64,000 bases of DNA from a bacterium. GTDB lineage: Bacteria > UBA6262 > WVXT01. The notes below the pieces were generated by a model that was not told the origin of the DNA, did not search any database, and worked only from the letters and a program-made list of their open reading frames with translations. Position 1 is the first letter of the stretch. The number at the start of each line of letters is the position of its first letter. The position numbers and the translations under genes were made by a program. The DNA lies in contig DATKVN010000010.1 of the NCBI GenBank assembly GCA_035530055.1, forward strand, positions 6,344 through 70,343. The letters are read 5' to 3'. Positions 3,437-61,670 of this stretch are shown here, piece by piece.

Positions 3437-5281
3437 TTAACCTTTTTTTCTCTCAGCCAAAAGAATAACATGTTTTAACTCTTCTTCGCCTTTTGCCTCA
3501 AGCCACTTCTTCTCAAATTCAGGATTCTGAACAATTTGAGCAATAGCAGCTAAAATTTTTAGATGTAAAACACGTTCGCCAGAAGAACCGACAAGAATAA
3601 ACGCAATATGAACTAACTGATCATTAGGGAAAATAATCCCCGTTTTTGCTCTAACCAAAATGACTTTAGCAATATTTTTCGCTCCGACAAAGATATGTGG
3701 AATAGCTAACCCTTTTCCAATTACTGTGCTTGATTCCGTCTCTCTTTTAACAAATTTCTTGAATAATTCTTCAGAATTTACATTTAGATCCCTACTTAGC
3801 ATGACTGAAACTTCTTTAAAAAAAACTTCCATTTTTAAAGGGGAATCTATATCTAAAACCCTCCCTTCTTCAATAAGTCTCTGGAATTTATCGCCCAGAA
3901 TCCCTTCTCGCTGGATAACTATCTCTTTTAACTCCGTTAGAAGACTGTCTGAGACTAATTCTTTATCCCTAGCAACCAATCTTTCTAAAACATATATGAG
4001 AGCTGTGTTTTGAGCTGCTCTTTTTTGCGCATATACTTTGTACCAGACAACTCCCAAAAGAAGAAAAATAGTAGTCAGAAAAATAATAAACGAGCCCATT
4101 TCTATTAAAAGAAAAATTCCTCCTAATACCCCTAAAATCTGCATATAAGGATAAAAGGGTGCATAGAATTTTGGCCTGTAGCTTAGAAGCTTGCTTTCTC
4201 TGAATAAGATAAGGGTCAGGTTGGCGAATATATAAAGTAAAATCAACACAGTGGAGGCAACTTTGACCAGTAATTCCAGCTTTAAAAAATAAATAGCCAA
4301 AACCATAAAAGCGCCGGTAAAGAAAATAGCGATATGAGGGGTTTTGAATTGGGAGCTTATTTTTTGAAAAACGGCGGGTAAAAGCTTGTCCCTGCTCATA
4401 CTCAAAGGGTATCTTGAAGCAGTCATAATCCCTGCGTTAGCAGTAGAAATAAAGGCCAAAAATGCGCCTATACTTATAATAATTTTTAAAACATTTCCAC
4501 CAAAGGCTCCTGCCCCGTCTGAGATCGGAGTAAGAGTACCTTTTAGGTTCTCGGGACTTAAAACCCCTATAGTTACAAAGATAACCAAAGCATAAAAAAT
4601 AGAGGTTACAATAAGAGAAAGTATCATGCCTAGAGGTAAATTCCTGCCTGGATTTTTTACTTCCTCAGCTAAAGCCACTACTTTAGTCAATCCCCCATAG
4701 GAAATAAAGACAAAGCTTGCTGTCGCAAGCAAAGAATTCAGCCCTTTAGAAAAGAATGGCGAAAAATGTCCGAAATCGACAGCTCTCATACCCCAGACAA
4801 CATAGCTGATAAGTATACCTAATAGGCCAACAACTAACCACACCTGAAATCTTCCAGCTTCTTTTACTCCTATTAAATTCAAGATTATAAAAAATAAACA
4901 ACAAATGAGTGCAACGATATGTATTGGAATATGAGTCATTATCGTTAAATACGCACCCATACCCAACAAAGCAAAGGCCCCTTTCAGGCTCAAAGAAAAC
5001 CAGGTACTAAAACCAGCTATTGTTCCCAATAGCGGACCAAATCCTCTCATGATATAGAAATAATCTCCGCCGGCCTTGGGCATCGCTGTAGTCAATTCTG
5101 CCATACTCAAAACCGTAGGGATACAAAACACACCCGCTATTATGTAAGATAGAATAACCGCAGGCCCCGCTTTAGCATAAGCTAATCCGGGCAAAATAAA
5201 CAAGCCCGAACTCATCATTGCCCCTGTCGCTACACAGAAAACATCTAAAAGAGTAAGTTCTCTTTTTAGACTTCTCTCCAT
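3437..5281 (-). CDS. APC-family amino acid permease fused to a C-terminal PTS EIIA (fructose/Ntr-type) domain
   Basis: 614 aa. The N-terminal roughly 430 aa form a 12-TM APC permease. The C-terminal roughly 150 aa carry the EIIA-2 signature GLAIPH...HIAFILVGS (phosphorylatable His). Confidence 0.8.
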   Translation of the reverse strand: MERSLKRELTLLDVFCVATGAMMSSGLFILPGLAYAKAGPAVILSYIIAGVFCIPTVLSMAELTTAMPKAGGDYFYIMRGFGPLLGTIAGFSTWFSLSLKGAFALLGMGAYLTIMTHIPIHIVALICCLFFIILNLIGVKEAGRFQVWLVVGLLGILISYVVWGMRAVDFGHFSPFFSKGLNSLLATASFVFISYGGLTKVVALAEEVKNPGRNLPLGMILSLIVTSIFYALVIFVTIGVLSPENLKGTLTPISDGAGAFGGNVLKIIISIGAFLAFISTANAGIMTASRYPLSMSRDKLLPAVFQKISSQFKTPHIAIFFTGAFMVLAIYFLKLELLVKVASTVLILLYIFANLTLILFRESKLLSYRPKFYAPFYPYMQILGVLGGIFLLIEMGSFIIFLTTIFLLLGVVWYKVYAQKRAAQNTALIYVLERLVARDKELVSDSLLTELKEIVIQREGILGDKFQRLIEEGRVLDIDSPLKMEVFFKEVSVMLSRDLNVNSEELFKKFVKRETESSTVIGKGLAIPHIFVGAKNIAKVILVRAKTGIIFPNDQLVHIAFILVGSSGERVLHLKILAAIAQIVQNPEFEKKWLEAKGEEELKHVILLAERKKG

Positions 5282-9994: not shown

Positions 9995-10190
9995 GGGGAG
10001 ACAATACTTAATTATTCTTCTTGGGTACTGGTTTCCCCTTTTTTAATACCTTTCCGGTTATTTCCTCAAGTTCGTTGAAAAAGTTTTTCAACATCCAATA
10101 GTCCAGTCGTGTTTGCCTATTATTATATAGAAGATTTGGCAAAATTTTCAAAAGTCCAGCATCGGGTTCAATAATTAAGTATTGTGTCCC
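9995..10190. mobile_element. MITE (about 196 bp) derived from the RAYT element: terminal IRs GGGGAGACAATACTTAATTAT / ATAATTAAGTATTGTGTCCC
   Basis: The ends are inverted copies of the RAYT-element termini. The first roughly 60 bp match the RAYT 3' coding end (TCTTCTTGGGTACTGGTTTCCCC...). It is about 85% identical to the element at 13813-14005. It fills the gap between a response-regulator stop and the rnk-like start. Confidence 0.75.
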
Positions 10191-21251: not shown

Positions 21252-21329
21252 TTTATTGTACCTTTGCTAACATTATACAAGTTTATTCATAAAAGTAAAG
21301 TAAATTTTGTGAGTTCTGGGGTGAGTTCT

Positions 21330-22117
21330 GGGGACACAATACTTAATTATTATTCTTGGGTCCTGGTTTCCCCTTTTTTAATACCTTTCCGGTTATTTCC
21401 TCAAGTTTAGTAATAAATTTATCATCACCTAAAGGTCGACCGGTGCGGGCATGTTCTCTGAAGAGATTCCTATCTATGTCTCTATCGTCTTCAGCAAGAT
21501 ATGATGACCAGTCTTCTATTTCTGAAAGCATAAAGTTATCAGAAAGTAAAATATCCTTTTCTTTCAGAACATGAGCTTTCGCACTCGACCAAGGGTAATC
21601 TTCAGCCCTTTTCACTAACCCTGCTCTTACTGGATTCCGTTCAACATAACGGACAGCCGCATAAAGATACTGCTCGTCCAATGGATAAGATATAAATCGC
21701 CCCTGCCACAGATATCCCCTCCACCCTTCACGGAAATTAATCATGCGGGTATAGTATCTGTGTACCTGACCTATTCCCCTCGCTAAACTGTCTTCATTCT
21801 TGGGGACAGCTATTAAATGCACATGATTATCCATCAAACAATATGCCCAGAAAATTACACCAGCTTCTATGGCATGCTTATATAGAAGATTAATGTAGGA
21901 TTTCTTATCTTGGTCGCTGAAGAATACATTCTGAGAGCGATTGCCACGTTGGATAATATGATGAGGATAGTTAAGTATGACGATACGTGCTATTCGTGCC
22001 ATGACATAATTCTAACAAATCAAGTATCAGAAATCAATAATTAAGTATTGTATCCCGGAAACTGGTGGGACGGAACTGGTGGGGCGAAACTGGTGGATAA
22101 TTAAGTATTGTGTCCCC
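21330..22117. mobile_element. REP-associated tyrosine transposase (RAYT / IS200-like) element with 21-bp terminal inverted repeats and a duplicated right end
   Basis: Left IR GGGGACACAATACTTAATTAT (21330-21350). Right IRs at 22036-22056 (degenerate) and 22097-22117, separated by three GAACTGGTGGG units. It is preceded by the GAGTTCTGGGG x2 micro-duplication. Confidence 0.8.
21343..22002 (-). CDS. REP-associated tyrosine transposase (IS200/IS605 TnpA-like, HuH)
   Basis: 219 aa with the HuH motif (MDNHVHLIAVP) and conserved Y in the YYTRMINF region. The architecture matches RAYT/Y1 transposases. The stop codon lies inside the left IR. Confidence 0.85.
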   Translation of the reverse strand: MARIARIVILNYPHHIIQRGNRSQNVFFSDQDKKSYINLLYKHAIEAGVIFWAYCLMDNHVHLIAVPKNEDSLARGIGQVHRYYTRMINFREGWRGYLWQGRFISYPLDEQYLYAAVRYVERNPVRAGLVKRAEDYPWSSAKAHVLKEKDILLSDNFMLSEIEDWSSYLAEDDRDIDRNLFREHARTGRPLGDDKFITKLEEITGKVLKKGKPGPKNNN

Positions 22118-22157
22118 GGAATTATTTCGCCCCTACGTGATTCGCAAGGATTCCATA

Positions 22158-24054: not shown

Positions 24055-26391
24055 TTATGAACCTAATTTCCAGGAGATTCCTGCAAAAATTCTCCTGCCG
24101 GGCATTGGATAGCCAAAAACTGTCTGGTATTTTTTATCAAGAATGTTATCGAGAGAAATATACGCTTCCAGATTTCTGATTCTTTGAGCAATCCTCGCAT
24201 TAAGCAAAAAGCAGTCTGGTAATTTATCCCCTGTCTTTCCTCTATCGCTCCATTGTTCGTCAACATATTCTGTTCCTAAACTTAACTTTAAACCAAAATT
24301 GTTAGCATAATTAATCCTGTAGTTGACTCGATTGTGGGGATTATAAGGCGCAATTTCATACTTATCTTCTCCTTCTTTCTTCCCTGCGCTGCGGATATAG
24401 GTATAATTTATGCTCTGAGAAAGTCCTGACATAATTTGATGGATAAATTCTAATTCTACGCCCTGGCTATAGGCTTGGGCGACGTTAGAAGGCCTCCATA
24501 TAAAAGATGGATCCATTGCCCACTCTATCAAATCCTCTATGTTGGTCTCGAATAGGGTCACCCTGCTTAATAAAAAATTCCCTAATTGGTGTTCAAATCC
24601 AAGGTCATAAGCCCAGGCCTTTTCTGGCTTCAAATCGGGATTCCCCTCTGCTTGATAACCATAATCTGTGTAAGGCTGGTATAGATCGCAGAACGTTGGC
24701 GCTCGAAAGCCCCTTCCCAGATTGAACGAAAGTTTTAAAGATTCTCCTGGCTGAGAGAGCTGATAGACCAAACTGAAACTGGGATTTATTTGACCTCCAT
24801 ATGCTGAATGGTTGTCGTAGCGGAGGCCCATTGTTGTAGTCAATGGCTTAAGGGATAGAATCTCCTGGAGAAAGATAGATTCATTTAAGGTCCTTTCACC
24901 AATTATGGTCTGTGAATTGATTTTATTTCTCTGCTTATATTCATCCTGGTGAATGTCCATACCGAGTGTTATCCCGTATAGAGTATCTAACTGAGTCTCT
25001 ACTCCCCGGGTAACATTTTCGTGAAGGTCATCTCTTAGCTCATCGGGATTTCGGTCTCTCCTTTGGTCGTTACTGCCATAGGCTTTGAGCAACAATTTTG
25101 AATTTTCTCCTCCATTTGAGTATTCTAAAATGGCGTATTCTTTCTCGTCCTCCTGATTGTGGTTAGGGTCGGATGCGAATTTTTCCTCTAAAATAATTTT
25201 TTCCCATGTACTTGAGTCAAACGTATAATTAACACCGGGTAGTCCCAGTTTTCCTCTATGGTAACCGCCTCTAAGTTCAAAATTTCCGATTTTCCCGGCA
25301 CTGTATGCTAATCTCCCTGTAAAATTATGGTTGTCATACGCACTATTTTCCCGCCAGCCGTTGGAAGTATTGTTACTTATTGTAAAGTAGGTTTTAATAT
25401 TGGTATCTTTTGTTCCGAAATTTAATCTAGCTATCTGGGTGCCAAAACTTCCTAAACCAAAATTTACATCAGCTGTTACCTTCTCGTCTTTTGCTTCTCT
25501 GGTAATGATATTGACTACTCCTCCCAGAGCATTGGCACCGTAGAGGGCTGAGGCAGGACCGCGCACAACTTCTATTCTTTCAATATTGTCTATGGAAAAT
25601 TGGCTCAGGTCGGCTATTCCATCTGAGGTGCTATTTATAGAGCGACCATCGACCATTACTAGTGTCTGATATGCGGAACAACCCCGAAGCCCAATGTAAG
25701 AGGGAGCTCCCAAGGTTCCATATCTTCTTACTTCTACGCCCAATCTGTTTTTAAGGACTTCTCCCACGTTGTGAGCGTTACTTTCGGCGATTTCTTTCCT
25801 GGTGATTACACTGACGTTTGTGGGTAAATCTTTTAGCATTCTGGGGCCCCTGGTGGGAGTAATTACGATGACTCCCATGTCCCCCATATAGACTGCCTGT
25901 TCCTCTCTATGTTCCTTCTCCTTCTCTATCTCTATCTCCCTCTCTTCTATCTTCTGAGAGGAGACTATCTTCTCCTCTTCCACTTTCTCCCTCACTTCTT
26001 TTAAGTCCTTTTCCAGCTGTTCCTTTAAGATATTGGCCTCTTCTTCTCTCCTTGTCCTCTCAAATTCAAGTTTATCTACCCTCTTCTTGAGCTCCCGTTC
26101 CATTCTATTCTTCTCTTCCTCTTTAGCCCTGAGTCTCCCTTCAACTTCACGCTTGACTTCCTCAATTAATGCCTTCTCCTTCTCTATCTCTATCTCTATC
26201 TCTATCTCTATCTCCCTCTCTTCTATCTTCTCAGAGGAGACTCTCTTTTCCTCTGCCACTTTCTCCCTTACTTCCTTTAACTCCTTTCCCAGCCAGGCGA
26301 GACCAACCACAAGTAGAATGGCTGCCGAAATCAAAATTAAATTTTTCTTTCTTAGTAACATCCAGATTACCCCCTTAAGAAATGTTTCCAA
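24055..26391 (-). CDS. TonB-dependent outer-membrane receptor (BtuB-like by context) with an about 170-aa N-terminal hydrophobic anchor and E/K-rich coiled-coil extension
   Basis: TonB-box-like MGVIVITPTR, then the plug (NIERIEVVRGPASALYGANALGGVVNIITR), a 22-strand barrel and a C-terminal aromatic residue. The N-terminal extension contains an internal direct DNA duplication and a (TCTCTA)n hexamer tract encoding EIEIEIEIE. Confidence 0.8.
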   Translation of the reverse strand: METFLKGVIWMLLRKKNLILISAAILLVVGLAWLGKELKEVREKVAEEKRVSSEKIEEREIEIEIEIEIEKEKALIEEVKREVEGRLRAKEEEKNRMERELKKRVDKLEFERTRREEEANILKEQLEKDLKEVREKVEEEKIVSSQKIEEREIEIEKEKEHREEQAVYMGDMGVIVITPTRGPRMLKDLPTNVSVITRKEIAESNAHNVGEVLKNRLGVEVRRYGTLGAPSYIGLRGCSAYQTLVMVDGRSINSTSDGIADLSQFSIDNIERIEVVRGPASALYGANALGGVVNIITREAKDEKVTADVNFGLGSFGTQIARLNFGTKDTNIKTYFTISNNTSNGWRENSAYDNHNFTGRLAYSAGKIGNFELRGGYHRGKLGLPGVNYTFDSSTWEKIILEEKFASDPNHNQEDEKEYAILEYSNGGENSKLLLKAYGSNDQRRDRNPDELRDDLHENVTRGVETQLDTLYGITLGMDIHQDEYKQRNKINSQTIIGERTLNESIFLQEILSLKPLTTTMGLRYDNHSAYGGQINPSFSLVYQLSQPGESLKLSFNLGRGFRAPTFCDLYQPYTDYGYQAEGNPDLKPEKAWAYDLGFEHQLGNFLLSRVTLFETNIEDLIEWAMDPSFIWRPSNVAQAYSQGVELEFIHQIMSGLSQSINYTYIRSAGKKEGEDKYEIAPYNPHNRVNYRINYANNFGLKLSLGTEYVDEQWSDRGKTGDKLPDCFLLNARIAQRIRNLEAYISLDNILDKKYQTVFGYPMPGRRIFAGISWKLGS

Positions 26392-26457
26392 TAACGCAGA
26401 GCGGTCGCTCTGCGGCTACAGGTTGCTGCACAATTTGAAATTGTGCCTACAAATCCA

Positions 26458-26670
26458 ACCTCCCTTTCGGGAGGACTCCAAAGACCCTGGAGTCCTTGCG
26501 AAAGCAAGGTCCCCTATATACCTCCCTTTCGGGAGGACTCCAAAGACCCTGGAGTCCTTGCGAAAGCAAGGTCCCCTATATACCTCCCTCTCGGCAGGAC
26601 TCCAAAGACCCTGGAGTCCTTGCGAAAACAAGGTCCCCTATATACCTCCCTCTCGGCAGGACTCCGGACT
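26458..26670. repeat. Tandem array of 3.4 x 62-bp units, each made of three hairpins (CCTCCC-TTTC-GGGAGG; GGACTCC-N9-GGAGTCC; CCTTGC-GAAA-GCAAGG)
   Basis: Units at 26458-26519, 26520-26581, 26582-26643 and a partial at 26644-26670 are over 93% identical. They lie between the cobO stop and the TonB-dependent receptor start. Confidence 0.9.
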
Positions 26671-26677
26671 TTTTCAA

Positions 26678-27223
26678 TTAATATTCGATGCCTCTTCTTT
26701 CTTTTACGCCTCGATGAAAGGGGTGTTTTATTTTCTTCATCTCGGTTACTAAATCTGCTCTTTTTATAATTTTCTTGGTTGCTCCTCTTCCAGTTAAAAT
26801 AATTTCTAAGGACTCTGGTTTCTTCTCCAGAAGCTGCAAAATTTCTTCTTCCTTCAAAAATCCGTCCCGTAAAGCAATCAGTATCTCGTCTAAAATTACC
26901 ATGTCATAGTTCTTCTGAAATATTTCCTTAATAGACTCTATTGCCTTCAGACATTTTTCTCTTATCCCTTCCGGTGGAATATTTTTATAGAAATGGGGAT
27001 GCTGAGGAACAAAATTAACAATTTCTATTCCTAGTCCTTTCAGGACTTCCACCTCACCGTAAGAGAAATCTTTCAGGTTTTTGAAGAAGTAAACAAAGCA
27101 TACTTTAAACTTATGTCCTTTTGCCCTTATTGCCTGACCGATGCTCGCTGTAGTTTTACCTTTTCCGTCGCCGGTATAAATCTGAATTAATCCTTTCTCT
27201 TCCAATTTGTGACACCTCCTCAA
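26678..27223 (-). CDS. cobO: Cob(I)yrinic acid a,c-diamide / corrinoid adenosyltransferase (CobO/BtuR/CobA type)
   Basis: 181 aa with the P-loop YTGDGKGKTTASIGQAIRAKG and a size matching the CobA/BtuR family. Confidence 0.85.
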   Translation of the reverse strand: MRRCHKLEEKGLIQIYTGDGKGKTTASIGQAIRAKGHKFKVCFVYFFKNLKDFSYGEVEVLKGLGIEIVNFVPQHPHFYKNIPPEGIREKCLKAIESIKEIFQKNYDMVILDEILIALRDGFLKEEEILQLLEKKPESLEIILTGRGATKKIIKRADLVTEMKKIKHPFHRGVKERRGIEY

Positions 27224-30100: not shown

Positions 30101-30268
30101 TTGTAGCCGCAAAGCGTAAGCTTTGCCTCATTTTAGCAGAGCTATCGCTCTGCAGCTACAATTTTATGGGTAGTGTAGCCTTTTATGGTCGTAATCGTAA
30201 TATAATTGTAGTGTAGCCCTTTATGGGCGTAATGTTTACGGGCATAAAGCCCTACACTACAAAAACCA
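30101..30268. repeat. Intra-operon mosaic of hairpin modules (AGCAAAGCGTAAGCTTTGC; GCAGAGCTATCGCTCTGC; GTAGTGTAGCC...GGCTACACTAC doublets)
   Basis: It shares modules with 49179-49340, 57340-57478 and 58590-58660. Confidence 0.8.
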
Positions 30269-32610: not shown

Positions 32611-32780
32611 AAACCCAACCTTCACTTGAAAGTTGGGACTGAAGCCTTATGAATTCGGCCAACCCTCCCGCGAAGGCACTATATTGCAAACAGGTTCTCG
32701 GACTTGCTTCTGTTAAGAAGCTCACCGTTGCGGGGCAGTGTCCGGTTTTCACGGACTTCCCCTATTTACATAAAAAATAT
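32611..32780 (-). promoter_or_regulatory. Cobalamin (AdoCbl) riboswitch with terminator-type expression platform
   Basis: Minus-strand RNA reads GGGGAAGUCCGUGAAAACCGGACACUGCCCCGCAACGGUGAGC ... AAGUCCGAGAACCUGUUUGC (B12-box-like), then the terminator CCCAACUUUCAAGUGAAGGUUGGG + UUUUUU ending 22 nt before the cobU ATG. Confidence 0.8.
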
Positions 32781-32787
32781 TTAATTT

Positions 32788-32818
32788 ATTCTACTATATA
32801 TGCTCTTCCTCTGTCAAG
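32788..32818 (-). promoter_or_regulatory. Sigma70-like promoter for the riboswitch-cob/btu operon
   Basis: Minus-strand TTGACA (32813-32818), a 19-nt spacer, then TAGAAT (32788-32793). The spacer is one or two nt longer than optimal. Confidence 0.4.
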
Positions 32819-33699: not shown

Positions 33700-33795
33700 G
33701 TCCTGCCGATTTCATCGGGGGAATAACTATCTTCCTCCCTCTCGGGAGGACTCCATACCCAGACTTTCTTCGGGAGGAATCCAGAAAAATTTAAA
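33700..33795. repeat. Hairpin modules (CCCCGATGAAATCGGGG; CCTCCCTCTCGGGAGG; GGACTCC)
   Basis: Members of the CCTCCC/GGGAGG family. Confidence 0.7.
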
Positions 33796-36112: not shown

Positions 36113-36298
36113 TTCAGTGCATGCGTTAGAAGGTCTCTGAAAATTCTGGACTCCTTGCGAATCGCGTAGGGGCGACCCTTGTGGTCGCCCGAACCTCCCT
36201 TTCGGGAGGACTCCACAAATTCTGGATTCCTTGCGAGAGCAAGGTTTTTTCCTCCCTCCCTTTCGGGAGGACTCCAAACTCCGATTTTGATAGGGCTC
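36113..36298. repeat. Hairpin-module mosaic (GCGACCCTTGTGGTCGCC; two CCTCCCTTTCGGGAGGACTCC units; CCTTGCGAGAGCAAGG)
   Basis: Members of the CCTCCC/GGGAGG family. Confidence 0.8.
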
Positions 36299-43976: not shown

Positions 43977-44055
43977 GCCTTCTCGTTCATTATAGAAACC
44001 TCCCTTTCGGGAGGACTCCGAAAAAAGGGGCCTGACCCCTTTTTTACCCCTTTTT

Positions 44056-47169: not shown

Positions 47170-47533
47170 TATCGTCGATATAGGATAGAATAGCAAAAGA
47201 ACTAAAATTTGTCAATTAAAACTGTCTACTTGACTATTTATACTAATTTTGAGGGTCTTAAGTGGAGGGAGCTTGATTTTCTGGGAAGCTGTGCAGGCTT
47301 TAGTTTTTGGAGTCCTCCCGAAAGGGAGGAAAGCAAAAAGTTGTAGCTCGAGAGCGACAACTCTGCATTGTAGGGGCGGCACTCCGTGGCCGCCCAAATG
47401 AAGGGACGGCACAGAATCCGTCCCCTACAGAGAGGCAAAGCTTACGCTTTGCTGCTACATTTTTGAATAACCCTTGCTTTCGCAAGGACTCCATAGGTTG
47501 TGAAATGTTCCGATGGATCGGAGCTACTCCATA
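47170..47533. repeat. About 360-bp intergenic mosaic of hairpin modules
   Basis: Modules in order: GGAGTCCTCCCGAAAGGGAGG; GAGAGCGACAACTCTGC; GGGGCGGCACTCCGTGGCCGCCC; GGGACGGCACAGAATCCGTCCCC; GCAAAGCTTACGCTTTGC; CTTGCTTTCGCAAGG; CCGATGGATCGGAGCTACTCC. Confidence 0.85.
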
Positions 47534-49178: not shown

Positions 49179-49340
49179 AAAGGTCGCCCCTACGCGACCA
49201 AAACATTATCCGTAGTGTAGCCCTTTATGGGCGTAATCTCTACGGGGACAAGCCCCTACACTACTTACATTGACGCACCGTTACGGACATAAAGACCTGC
49301 ATTGCCAATGAAGCAGAGCTTCGCTCTGCTGCTACATTCG
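49179..49340. repeat. REPIN-like doublets: TACGGGCATAAAGCCCCTG ... GTAGTGTAGCCCTTTATGGGCGTAAT...TACGGGGACAAGCCCCTACACTAC plus GCAGAGCTTCGCTCTGC
   Basis: Inverted pairs begin with GTAG. The same unit occurs at 30170-30265 and 58595-58650. Confidence 0.8.
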
Positions 49341-51446: not shown

Positions 51447-51630
51447 ACAAAATTTTTGGTATTTCCTTGTTTTTTATCTTATATCTTTTTGGAAAAAAAG
51501 TCAATATTCCCAAATAATAACTGGTAGTCAGGGACTTCATCTTTTGGAGTCCTCCCGAAAGGGAGGAAAGACCCCCTATTTCATCGGGGGAACCCAGAAG
51601 TTGCGGTTACTAAATAATAAAATAGAAAGG

Positions 51631-51922
51631 CTTGAAATGAACCTGTAAGCCGAATCCTGTATTCCGACTACAAATCGGAACGATGGTTATTTATCTAAGC
51701 GACCAACCCATAGAGTAGTAACGAGACGGGCCGTCTCTCCTCTGCTATTCGGTCTTGCTCCGAGTGGGGTTTAGCCTTTTCACTACAGCATTACCTGTAC
51801 CTGGTTTCTGTGCCACTTTCCGTAGGATCGCTCCCCTTCCGTTTACACGGAACACCCTGCCCTGTGGAGTTCGGACTTTCCTCTCCGATAAATATCGGAG
51901 CAACCATCCGGTTCACTTCAAA
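51631..51922 (-). ncRNA. rnpB: RNase P RNA, bacterial type A, compact
   Basis: Minus strand reads GAAGUGAACC...AGGAAAGUCCGAACUCCACAGGGCAGGGUG...GGAAAGUGCCACAGAAA...AAACCCCACUCGGAGCAAGACCGAAUAG...ACGGCCCGUC...CGCUUAGAUAAAUAACC...GGCUUACAGGUUCAUUUC. The P1 helix pairs 5' GAAGUGAACC with 3' GGUUCAUUUC. Confidence 0.85.
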
Positions 51923-51934
51923 CCTATATATACG

Positions 51935-52047
51935 CAGGCTAAAGCCTGCGGCTACCATTTATTATTGGGTAGTCGCAACCTTTAGGTTGCGTTATGTACG
52001 CAGACTAAAGTCTGCTACTCCTAAGACGCTCCGATGAATCGGAGCTA
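51935..52047. repeat. Hairpin modules (GCAGGCTAAAGCCTGC; GCAACCTTTAGGTTGC; GCAGACTAAAGTCTGC; CCGATGAATCGG, each followed by (G)CTAC)
   Basis: Same family as 9440-9530 and 42385-42440. It abuts the rnhA stop. Confidence 0.8.
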
Positions 52048-54449: not shown

Positions 54450-54521
54450 TGGGCAATGCTGGGGTTGAACCAGCGACTTCTGCCTTGTGAAAGCAGCGCT
54501 CTCCCGCTGAGCTAATTGCCC
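54450..54521 (-). tRNA. tRNA-Val (anticodon CAC), CCA not encoded
   Basis: Reverse complement GGGCAATTAGCTCAGCGGGAGAGCGCTGCTTTCACAAGGCAGAAGTCGCTGGTTCAACCCCAGCATTGCCCA. Anticodon loop TTCACAA, T-loop GGTTCAACC. Confidence 0.9.
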
Positions 54522-54554: not shown

Positions 54555-54666
54555 CCAAGGTCTGCTACTCCACAGTCTTTTGGAGTAGCGAAACTTGTTT
54601 CGCGTTAATAACAAGGTCTGCTACTCCACAGTCTTTTGGAGTAGCGAAACTTGTTTCGCGTTAATA
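54555..54666. repeat. Perfect tandem duplication, 2 x 56 bp (AAGGTCTGCTACTCCACAGTCTTTTGGAGTAGCGAAACTTGTTTCGCGTTAATAAC)
   Basis: Each unit contains the nested inverted repeat GCTACTCC...GGAGTAGC and GCGAAAC-TT-GTTTCGC. A single copy occurs at 61600-61660. Confidence 0.9.
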
Positions 54667-54735
54667 ACGCAGAGCAATCTCTGCTTATTCCTTTTAAAAT
54701 AATTATAATGCGATAATGAAATTTTGTCAAGAAGT

Positions 54736-58589: not shown

Positions 58590-58660
58590 TAAGTTGTAGG
58601 TAGTGTAGCCCTTTATGGGCGTAATTTTTACGGGGACAAGCCCCTACACTACCAATTTAA
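58590..58660. repeat. REPIN-like GTAG doublet (GTAGTGTAGCCCTTTATGGGCGTAAT...TACGGGGACAAGCCCCTACACTAC)
   Basis: Third copy of this unit. Confidence 0.8.
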
Positions 58661-61568: not shown

Positions 61569-61589
61569 TCACACCTCAAACTACCTTGC

Positions 61590-61670
61590 TTTCGCAAGGA
61601 CTCCATTGTTTCTGGAGTAGCGAAACTTGTTTCGCGTTAATAACGCAGAGCAAGCTCTGCTACTCCATTG
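61590..61670. repeat. Hairpin modules (CTTGCTTTCGCAAGGACTCC; GGAGTAGCGAAACTTGTTTCGC; GCAGAGCAAGCTCTGCTACTCC)
   Basis: Single copy of the 56-bp unit that is duplicated at 54555-54666. Confidence 0.8.

Follow-up and report, generated by a model that had tools for sequence, protein, structure and literature searches.

The tandem array at positions 26458-26665 of the window (the whole 64,000-nucleotide stretch of DNA analysed here) is very probably a BIME-like tandem cluster of REP (repetitive extragenic palindrome) elements composed of heterodimers tied to a REP-associated tyrosine transposase (RAYT). The decisive evidence is that its two modules, A and B, also flank bona fide RAYT genes, and on that ground we regard them as REPs tied to RAYT. 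An earlier note had suggested a transcript processing or stability element or an attenuator, with a REP-like expansion as the fallback; the fallback came near the answer, and the note missed the tie to RAYT and the lineage-specific amplification of the array.

Architecture of the array and its gene context

TRF analysis of 26458-26665 identified a period of 62 bp in 3.4 copies with 97% matches, 0 indels, and a score of 381, a copy number to be read with the caveat that a 208-bp tandem could be miscounted if the window assembly is short-read. The 3.4 near-identical 62-bp units of the earlier note are thus borne out, as is their location between cobO (PF02572) and a TonB-dependent receptor gene (Plug + beta-barrel). 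The array and its surroundings comprise the following features:

24055-26361, minus strand: TonB-dependent receptor with Plug and beta-barrel domains (Pfam), the downstream gene
26395-26450, plus strand: two GTAG/CTAC-type REPs between the array and the receptor gene (perfect-hairpin search)
26458-26665, no strand assigned: the array, seven modules in alternating orientation (TRF, sequence, and module matches)
26678-27223, minus strand: cobO, ATP:corrinoid adenosyltransferase, the upstream gene (Pfam PF02572, 191 bits; NCBIfam)
32673-32808, minus strand: cobalamin riboswitch (Rfam RF00174, 44 bits versus a gathering score of 31.5), which is context and not repeat

Each unit joins two 21-nt modules tail to tail. 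Module A is CCTCCC-TTTC-GGGAGG-ACTCC, which reads GGAGT+CCTCCC-GAAA-GGGAGG in the mRNA sense, and module B is of the same design with the stem CCTTGC, its B' form in the mRNA sense being CCTTGC-TTTC-GCAAGG+ACTCC. In both, a GC-rich stem of 6 bp closes a loop of 4 nt and is bordered by an unpaired ACTCC/GGAGT tag; they differ solely at the two central stem pairs. Read as mRNA (minus strand), the array has the pattern A-(TATATAGGGGA-B'-AGGGTCTTT-A)x3: four A modules alternate with three B' modules, joined by linkers of 11 and 9 nt. The individual copies were located by module matches:

26459-26479, plus strand: module A copy 1 (CCTCCC-tttc-GGGAGG-ACTCC)
26521-26541, 26583-26603, and 26645-26665: the other array copies of module A
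26489-26509, minus strand: module B copy 1 (CCTTGC-tttc-GCAAGG-ACTCC on the minus strand)
26551-26571 and 26613-26633 (one mismatch): the other array copies of module B

A copies 3 and 4 (26583-26603 and 26645-26665) carry the same variant, CCTCCCTCTCGGCAGG / CTCTCGGCAGG. The three inverted repeats named earlier were found in every unit, and the middle one, GGACTCC-N9-GGAGTCC, is two module tags face to face across 9 nt. A GNRA (GAAA) loop is indeed presented on either strand, by B on the plus strand and by A on the minus strand, with GAGA in two variant copies. The three hairpins of the unit overlap in bases, the 53-nt dimer is a near-perfect inverted repeat, and folding predicts that a 62-nt unit of single-stranded DNA favours one long imperfect hairpin; the two strands gave -17.3 and -17.9 kcal/mol with z values of -5.7 to -6.0 (-5.7 for the former), and the modules folded singly gave -5.6 and -6.0 kcal/mol. 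The note's statement that the array is not a CRISPR stands, and we reject that candidate because the units follow one another directly, all 62 bp being repeated, with no spacers. The ORFs at 26443-26769(+) and 26416-26631(-) were rejected as genes because they cross the repeat units and the array is missing in relatives; for annotation, ORFs called over the array are spurious.

Nearly all of the window genes are on the minus strand, and Pfam matches place the array in a riboswitch-led same-strand string in the order cobU-cobT-cobS-btuF-like (periplasmic binding protein)-permease-ATPase-cobO-array-receptor, with the cobalamin riboswitch 6 kb upstream of the array. The cobO stop codon is located 12 nt ahead of the first array module. 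The best NCBIfam match of the receptor is a B12 receptor, under cutoff, and its probable start is the ATG at 26361, preceded by AAGGGGGT. A search of the spacer for a promoter returned nothing above chance, so co-transcription is likely. Intrinsic terminators were sought in the array region, yielding 3 sites versus 1.3 expected, none of them proper, and a weak T-rich tail (TTGGATTTGT) is present at the last A module only. The best Rfam matches for 26300-26750 were at chance level (E of at least 0.1, far under the gathering scores). The array was rejected as a riboswitch or known RNA family, as the region has no Rfam match and the sole riboswitch is that at 32673-32808. As a separate observation, the receptor contains an E/K-rich insertion of ~130 aa (residues ~34-162; 25906-26292) between the signal peptide and the TonB-box region that is missing in all 16 of the orthologous loci described below; it holds a 276-nt-spaced duplication (25917-26017 / 26193-26293, 90%) and a TCTCTA x5.7 microsatellite.

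Membership in a dispersed, RAYT-associated repeat family

The array belongs to a dispersed repeat family. The window was searched for both modules with up to 3 mismatches and compared with shuffles: module A (CCTCCCTTTCGGGAGGACTCC) occurs 10 times in the 64 kb, 4 times in the array and 6 times dispersed, and module B (CCTTGCTTTCGCAAGGACTCC) occurs 6 times, 3 of them in the array and 3 elsewhere; the shuffles contained 0 of either. The copies outside of the array, all from module matches unless stated, are these:

33734-33754, plus strand: single A
36194-36275, no strand assigned: A-B-A trimer (A 36194-36214, B 36224-36244, A 36255-36275)
43999-44019, plus strand: single A
47309-47329, minus strand: single A
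47472-47492, plus strand: B
51546-51566, minus strand: single A
61584-61604, plus strand: B, tail-to-tail with a GGAGTAG-tagged module at 61614-61635

The dispersed sites of the earlier note were correct to ~10 nt, and it had overlooked those at 47472-47492 and 61584-61604.

An unbiased search for perfect hairpins returned 151 in the window, versus 46-81 in mononucleotide shuffles, and in 42 of the 151 the stem base adjoins an ACTCC or CTAC (=GTAG) tag. Of the 256 possible 4-mers flanking the window hairpins, the three seen most often are CTCC, ACTC, and CTAC. The tag is constant and the stems vary (CCTCCC, CCTTGC, GCAGAC, GCGAAA, GCTCCGA, GTCAAAC, GCAGAG, CGCAGGC, GGGCGACC, and others). Even with a deliberately inclusive ORF model, by which 90.5% of the window was called coding, 27 of these 42 hairpins lie between genes. 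Of the remaining 15, 14 fall within spurious ORFs that span repeats or within 90 nt of the start of ORFs extended too far, and the single one deep within a gene is AT-rich, so that 41 of 42 are effectively extragenic.

The hallmark tag of REPs is GTAG, with the complement CTAC (PMC3733652, PMC3333891). Modules A and B are without the canonical GTAG, as GGAGT abuts the stem and GTCC replaces GTAG. The canonical form is carried by sister modules in the window, namely GGAGTAG-GCAGAC, -GCGAAA, and -GCTCCGA and the two REPs at 26395-26450, the first of which is a CGCAGAGC-ggtc-GCTCTCGC-type hairpin (CGCAGAGCggtcGCTCTGCG) followed by GCTAC and the second GCACAATT-tga-AATTGTGC followed by CTAC.

Several other repeats of the window were noted in passing. 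A second perfect tandem at 54556-54668 (56 bp x 2) consists of GTAG-type modules with GCAGAC and GCGAAA stems, paired tail to tail as a heterodimer, and it adjoins a tRNA gene (54450-54521). The RNase P RNA gene at 51630-51919(-) has the A module at 51546-51566 downstream and a cluster of four GTAG modules (51933-52045) upstream. A 53-nt composite palindrome, GTAGTGTAG...CTACACTAC, with two inner hairpins is present at 30164-30260, 49206-49264, and 58594-58652, and one copy separates cobS from the binding-protein gene in the array's operon.

Beyond the window, an exact scan for the A 21-mer using one genome per species gave at least 120 stretches among the matches listed, mostly from few uncultured MAGs and 80-97% identical to the window over syntenic genes. 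In the sampled loci, A/B modules are scattered over more than 260 sites. When the window and 120 related loci were taken together, a perfect hairpin adjoined 326 of 2118 ACTCC sites, and 15 or more stem types recurred. Module placement in the related loci was between same-direction genes in 163 cases, between convergent genes in 8, and between divergent genes in 9. The tail-to-tail dimers of the sampled loci (n = 34) have spacers of 7-11 nt, and every listed stem pairing is heterodimeric. The 1.41 Mb sampled contain 18 clusters of at least three A/B modules; the window array ranks second to one of 11 modules situated next to a RAYT gene. A full-text literature search for the module sequences found no paper. 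The exact 21-nt A was also seen in MAGs labelled Scalindua, Elusimicrobiota, Gammaproteobacteria, and Deltaproteobacteria (L040 6250, L088 4156, L105, L055 4127, L101 1482, L038, L071), and the Scalindua-labelled copies occupy an orthologous site in two independent MAGs. From these sequence labels, the occurrence of module A beyond one lineage suggests spread or mislabelled bins. Among GlgC homologues, identity to the window was 78-96% within the clade, whose records are labelled simply 'bacterium', and at most 67% to records with more specific labels, save for one hit of 81% labelled Elusimicrobiota.

The A/B repeat family is associated with RAYT genes. A 175-aa ORF in a Scalinduaceae MAG (L105:3402-3929) scored 93.6 bits on the NCBIfam model REP_Tyr_transpos (cutoff 80) and has the exact A 21-mer and B-like modules on either side; its homologues P0010, P0017, and P0008 scored 92-113 bits on the same model. 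For RAYT contexts at 54% identity or above (L201/L202, L203, L206, and L209), A and/or B' were present on both sides in all cases read, as A-B'-A trimers in L201 (upstream) and L206, B'-A dimers in L203, and a single A upstream in L202. The RAYT flanks of L201 and L206 are 84-92% identical to the window array. The modules flanking a 48%-identical homologue (L208) share the tag and the TTTC loop and have other stems. No flanking ACTCC modules were found at a 46%-identical homologue (L207, P0044), indicating that the association does not cover all homologues at 46% identity. The neighbouring genes in L201 and L206 place the RAYT in the window's lineage: those flanking the L201 gene are 92% identical to a MAG that is 97% identical to the window, and the L206 neighbourhood matches a different MAG of the family at 94% identity. 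No cognate RAYT was found in the 64-kb window itself. The identical 21-nt A lies beside RAYTs of the Scalinduaceae MAG and of the window's lineage that share only ~56% identity. For assembly, A/B-type repeats break contigs, and the RAYT genes are mostly on very short contigs.

In the relatives L201 and L206 (6001-6525 in each), the RAYT gene lies between a radical-SAM gene and a DUF72 gene. It is missing at that site in L052 (~4861-4900), L066 (~1543-1593), and L028 (~1896-1966), where about one REP is left, and in L028 the adjacent radical-SAM gene is missing as well. The absence in these three MAGs may reflect either real loss, by deletion between flanking direct REP trimers, or assembly collapse.

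Turnover of the cobO-receptor spacer and alternative explanations

An exact-protein look-up of CobO gave no match, and no cobO/receptor orthologues were found among the 120 A-bearing genome loci; a metagenome scan with CobO provided 16 orthologous cobO-receptor loci. Their spacers range from ~60 to ~390 nt, each with a different mix of tagged hairpins. The array is present in 0 of the 16, none has more than one A module, and there are no A or B modules outside of L127, L129, and L131. These three loci retain the window's flanks and both of the GTAG REPs at 26395-26450, but with one A versus the 7 modules of the window, and the window-specific insert relative to them is exactly 3 x 62 nt. Between genomes, the module number at this locus is 7 (window), 1 (L127/L129/L131), and 0 (the other orthologous spacers). 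The dispersed trimer behaves similarly, with A-B-A at 36194-36275 in the window versus a single A in L056, L078, and L080, including a 97%-identical relative. No target-site duplications were seen at the gained units of the array or of the 36194 site. We conclude that the array modules were gained in a lineage-specific manner, and that the spacer between cobO and the receptor is hypervariable filler of REP type rather than a conserved regulator. Other repeats occupy some of these spacers: copies of the GTAGTGTAG...CTACACTAC family, mostly partial, are found in L122-L124, L126, L130, and L132-L134, and AT-rich satellites (GAAATTTG / GTAATTTG / GGAATTTG) lie amid palindromes in L126, L130, and L132-L134 and not in the window's spacer.

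The turnover of the spacer bears on the possibility that the array was selected to control the receptor as a cis-regulatory RNA specific to the B12 operon, for instance an attenuator, a processing site, or a platform for protein binding. Its position on the transcribed strand between cobO and the receptor, the GNRA loops that the mRNA would display, the structure predicted for the spacer RNA (-157.8 kcal/mol, z = -8.75), and a family orientation bias of 116:47 toward the GGAGU-hairpin in the mRNA sense, in which gene and replication direction are confounded, all fit such a role. The spacer is nevertheless unconserved in the 16 orthologous loci, the same modules adjoin tRNA, RNase P RNA, and unrelated genes, no Rfam match was obtained and the riboswitch sits elsewhere, and a wobble comparison in the sense strand gave no clear sign of selection on the RNA (5 G.U versus 8 A.C mismatches). 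The lack of conserved spacer content together with a riboswitch 6 kb upstream makes dedicated B12 regulation unlikely, and we consider this explanation quite improbable.

Another alternative is that a chance palindrome multiplied by replication slippage or unequal crossing-over alone, transposase-free throughout. The 97% identity of the units and the private variant CTCTCGGCAGG in the adjacent A copies 3 and 4 are what local duplication would leave, and from the shared variant we take the later steps to be local duplications. The first step cannot be slippage of local sequence, however, since the B module and both linkers are absent in the single-A alleles and so came from elsewhere; moreover, the same A-B-A unit flanks RAYT genes and the modules recur at the many sampled sites noted above. 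As an account of the whole array, slippage has very little probability.

The sole Y1 (IS200-like) transposase gene of the window (21343-22002) lies 4.4 kb from the array. It scored 62 bits on the RAYT model (cutoff 80), is 24-26% identical to the A/B-flanked RAYTs, and is bracketed by inverted copies of another repeat, GGGGACACAATACTTAATTAT (region 21312-22124), of which there are 12 in the window:

1706, 1759, 9387, 9995, 10171, 12989, 13813, 13986, 15297, 21330, 22037, and 22097: GGGGACACAATACTTAATTAT TIR copies

This repeat fits the GGGGWSAS shared by the TIRs of the TIRYT class (PMC3733652), to which the gene apparently belongs on the evidence of its termini, as an element separate from the A/B repeats. 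It was rejected as the cognate A/B transposase on the basis of the different flanking repeat, the score below the cutoff, and the low identity. A TIR-type MITE moved by a DDE transposase or by this Y1 gene, an idea invited by the near-perfect inverted repeat of the dimer and the proximity of the gene, is hardly credible given those same properties of the gene and the lack of a target-site duplication at the gained units. The inverted GGGGACACAATACTTAATTAT pairs 1706/1759, 9995/10171, and 13813/13986 resemble MITE-like deletion derivatives, and the pair 9995-10171 keeps a 24-aa C-terminal remnant of the Y1 gene.

Proposed mechanism and comparison with known systems

TnpA-REP acts on single-stranded hairpins, and its strand transfer can build tandem BIMEs in vitro (PMC3333891). 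For the RAYT-associated REP array favoured here, we propose that the A/B REPs would act as substrates of the lineage RAYT (Y1/HUH, single-stranded hairpin DNA), whose gene lies elsewhere in genomes of the lineage. A resident single A would gain a linker and a B-A dimer, either via RAYT strand transfer or by recombination with another copy, and the 62-bp unit would then be reiterated locally to 3.4 copies. We infer that the first unit was delivered by RAYT and not by recombination.

If transcribed within the riboswitch-led cob/btu string, the array is predicted to form a very stable structured block. E. coli REP325 is a partial terminator and a stabiliser of upstream mRNA (bioRxiv 10.64898/2026.03.23.713779). 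By analogy with E. coli REPs, the array would probably shield the mRNA upstream of it, with cobO, against 3' exonucleases and would lower read-through into the receptor gene. Such an effect on the transcript, as stabiliser or attenuator, is plausible, and by the same analogy it would be a side effect and not conserved B12-specific regulation.

On a broader scale, we tentatively raise the possibility, which we hold to be doubtful, that A/B constitutes a REP-RAYT family with the non-canonical GGAGT/ACTCC tag across distant lineages (the window's bacterium, Scalindua of the Planctomycetota, and MAGs labelled Elusimicrobiota and Deltaproteobacteria), in which the 21-nt REP would be more conserved than the transposase and arrays would grow by RAYT adding tail-to-tail heterodimers at a resident tag, each insertion remaking its target. 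If true, it would imply horizontal spread of the REP-RAYT pair or unusually strict recognition constraints. The novelty is otherwise modest and consists of the GGAGT/ACTCC tag, the very high REP density in an uncultured lineage, and an identical REP beside RAYTs of ~56% identity; the kind of element is ordinary. A conspicuous repeat is accounted for without a new regulatory RNA, an uncultured sediment lineage is seen to be REP-dense (~42 tagged hairpins in 64 kb), and the repeat is paired with a biochemically testable transposase family. The cobO-receptor spacer provides a natural 0/1/7-module allele series for gauging the REP load on operon expression.

The A/B modules have the properties of REPs in the broad sense: a GC-rich stem-loop in the 20-40 nt range, dispersed copies, an extragenic location, and a RAYT flanked by the same REPs. 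The closest architectural counterpart is E. coli BIME-2 (y/z2 REP; Bachellier/Gilson, Ton-Hoang 2012, PMC3333891), whose tandem copies show good conservation at any one locus and differ in number from strain to strain (PMC3333891). Like BIME-2, the array has two slightly different stems as alternating variants, short linkers, near-identical tandem copies conserved at the locus with a number that differs between genomes, an intergenic position inside an operon, and a link to a Y1 transposase with the same REPs on either side. Unlike BIME-2, the sequence is unrelated, there are no y/z2 REP sequences or S/s/l/r linkers, and the host is an uncultured lineage; the array is an analogue in architecture and not a member of the enterobacterial family. 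The BIME-2 REPs are ~35 nt with obligatory mismatches and GTAG, whereas A and B are shorter, with a perfect 6-bp stem, a 4-nt loop, and GGAGT/ACTCC.

With the GTAG REP superfamily, including the Stenotrophomonas SMAGs (Di Nocera 2013, PMC3733652), the family shares short GC-rich stem-loops with an unpaired terminal tag, several stem families per genome, HH and TT dimers with a preference for heterodimers, tandem clusters, REPtrons, and co-occurring TIR-flanked TIRYT genes; reiteration of REP dimers in tandem is known (PMC3733652). It departs from that superfamily in that A and B are without GTAG, and the GTAG sister modules of the window form hybrid dimers with B. As in the REPINs of Pseudomonas fluorescens (Bertels and Rainey 2011, PMC3116915), an inverted REP pair with a short spacer forms one hairpin, it is the doublet and not the lone REP that recurs, and the elements are RAYT-associated; the B-A pair, with its tags inward across a 9-nt spacer and its predicted single hairpin, may be described as a REPIN-like heterodimer. 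The array dimers differ from those REPINs in having a far shorter loop (7-11 nt) and arms that are systematically different. Finally, the subterminal hairpins of IS200/IS605 likewise combine a hairpin with an adjacent short guide/cleavage motif read as ssDNA by a Y1 HUH enzyme, a reading that is putative for A/B; in contrast to IS200/IS605, no transposase gene lies between the A/B hairpins, and the copies are non-autonomous and far more numerous.
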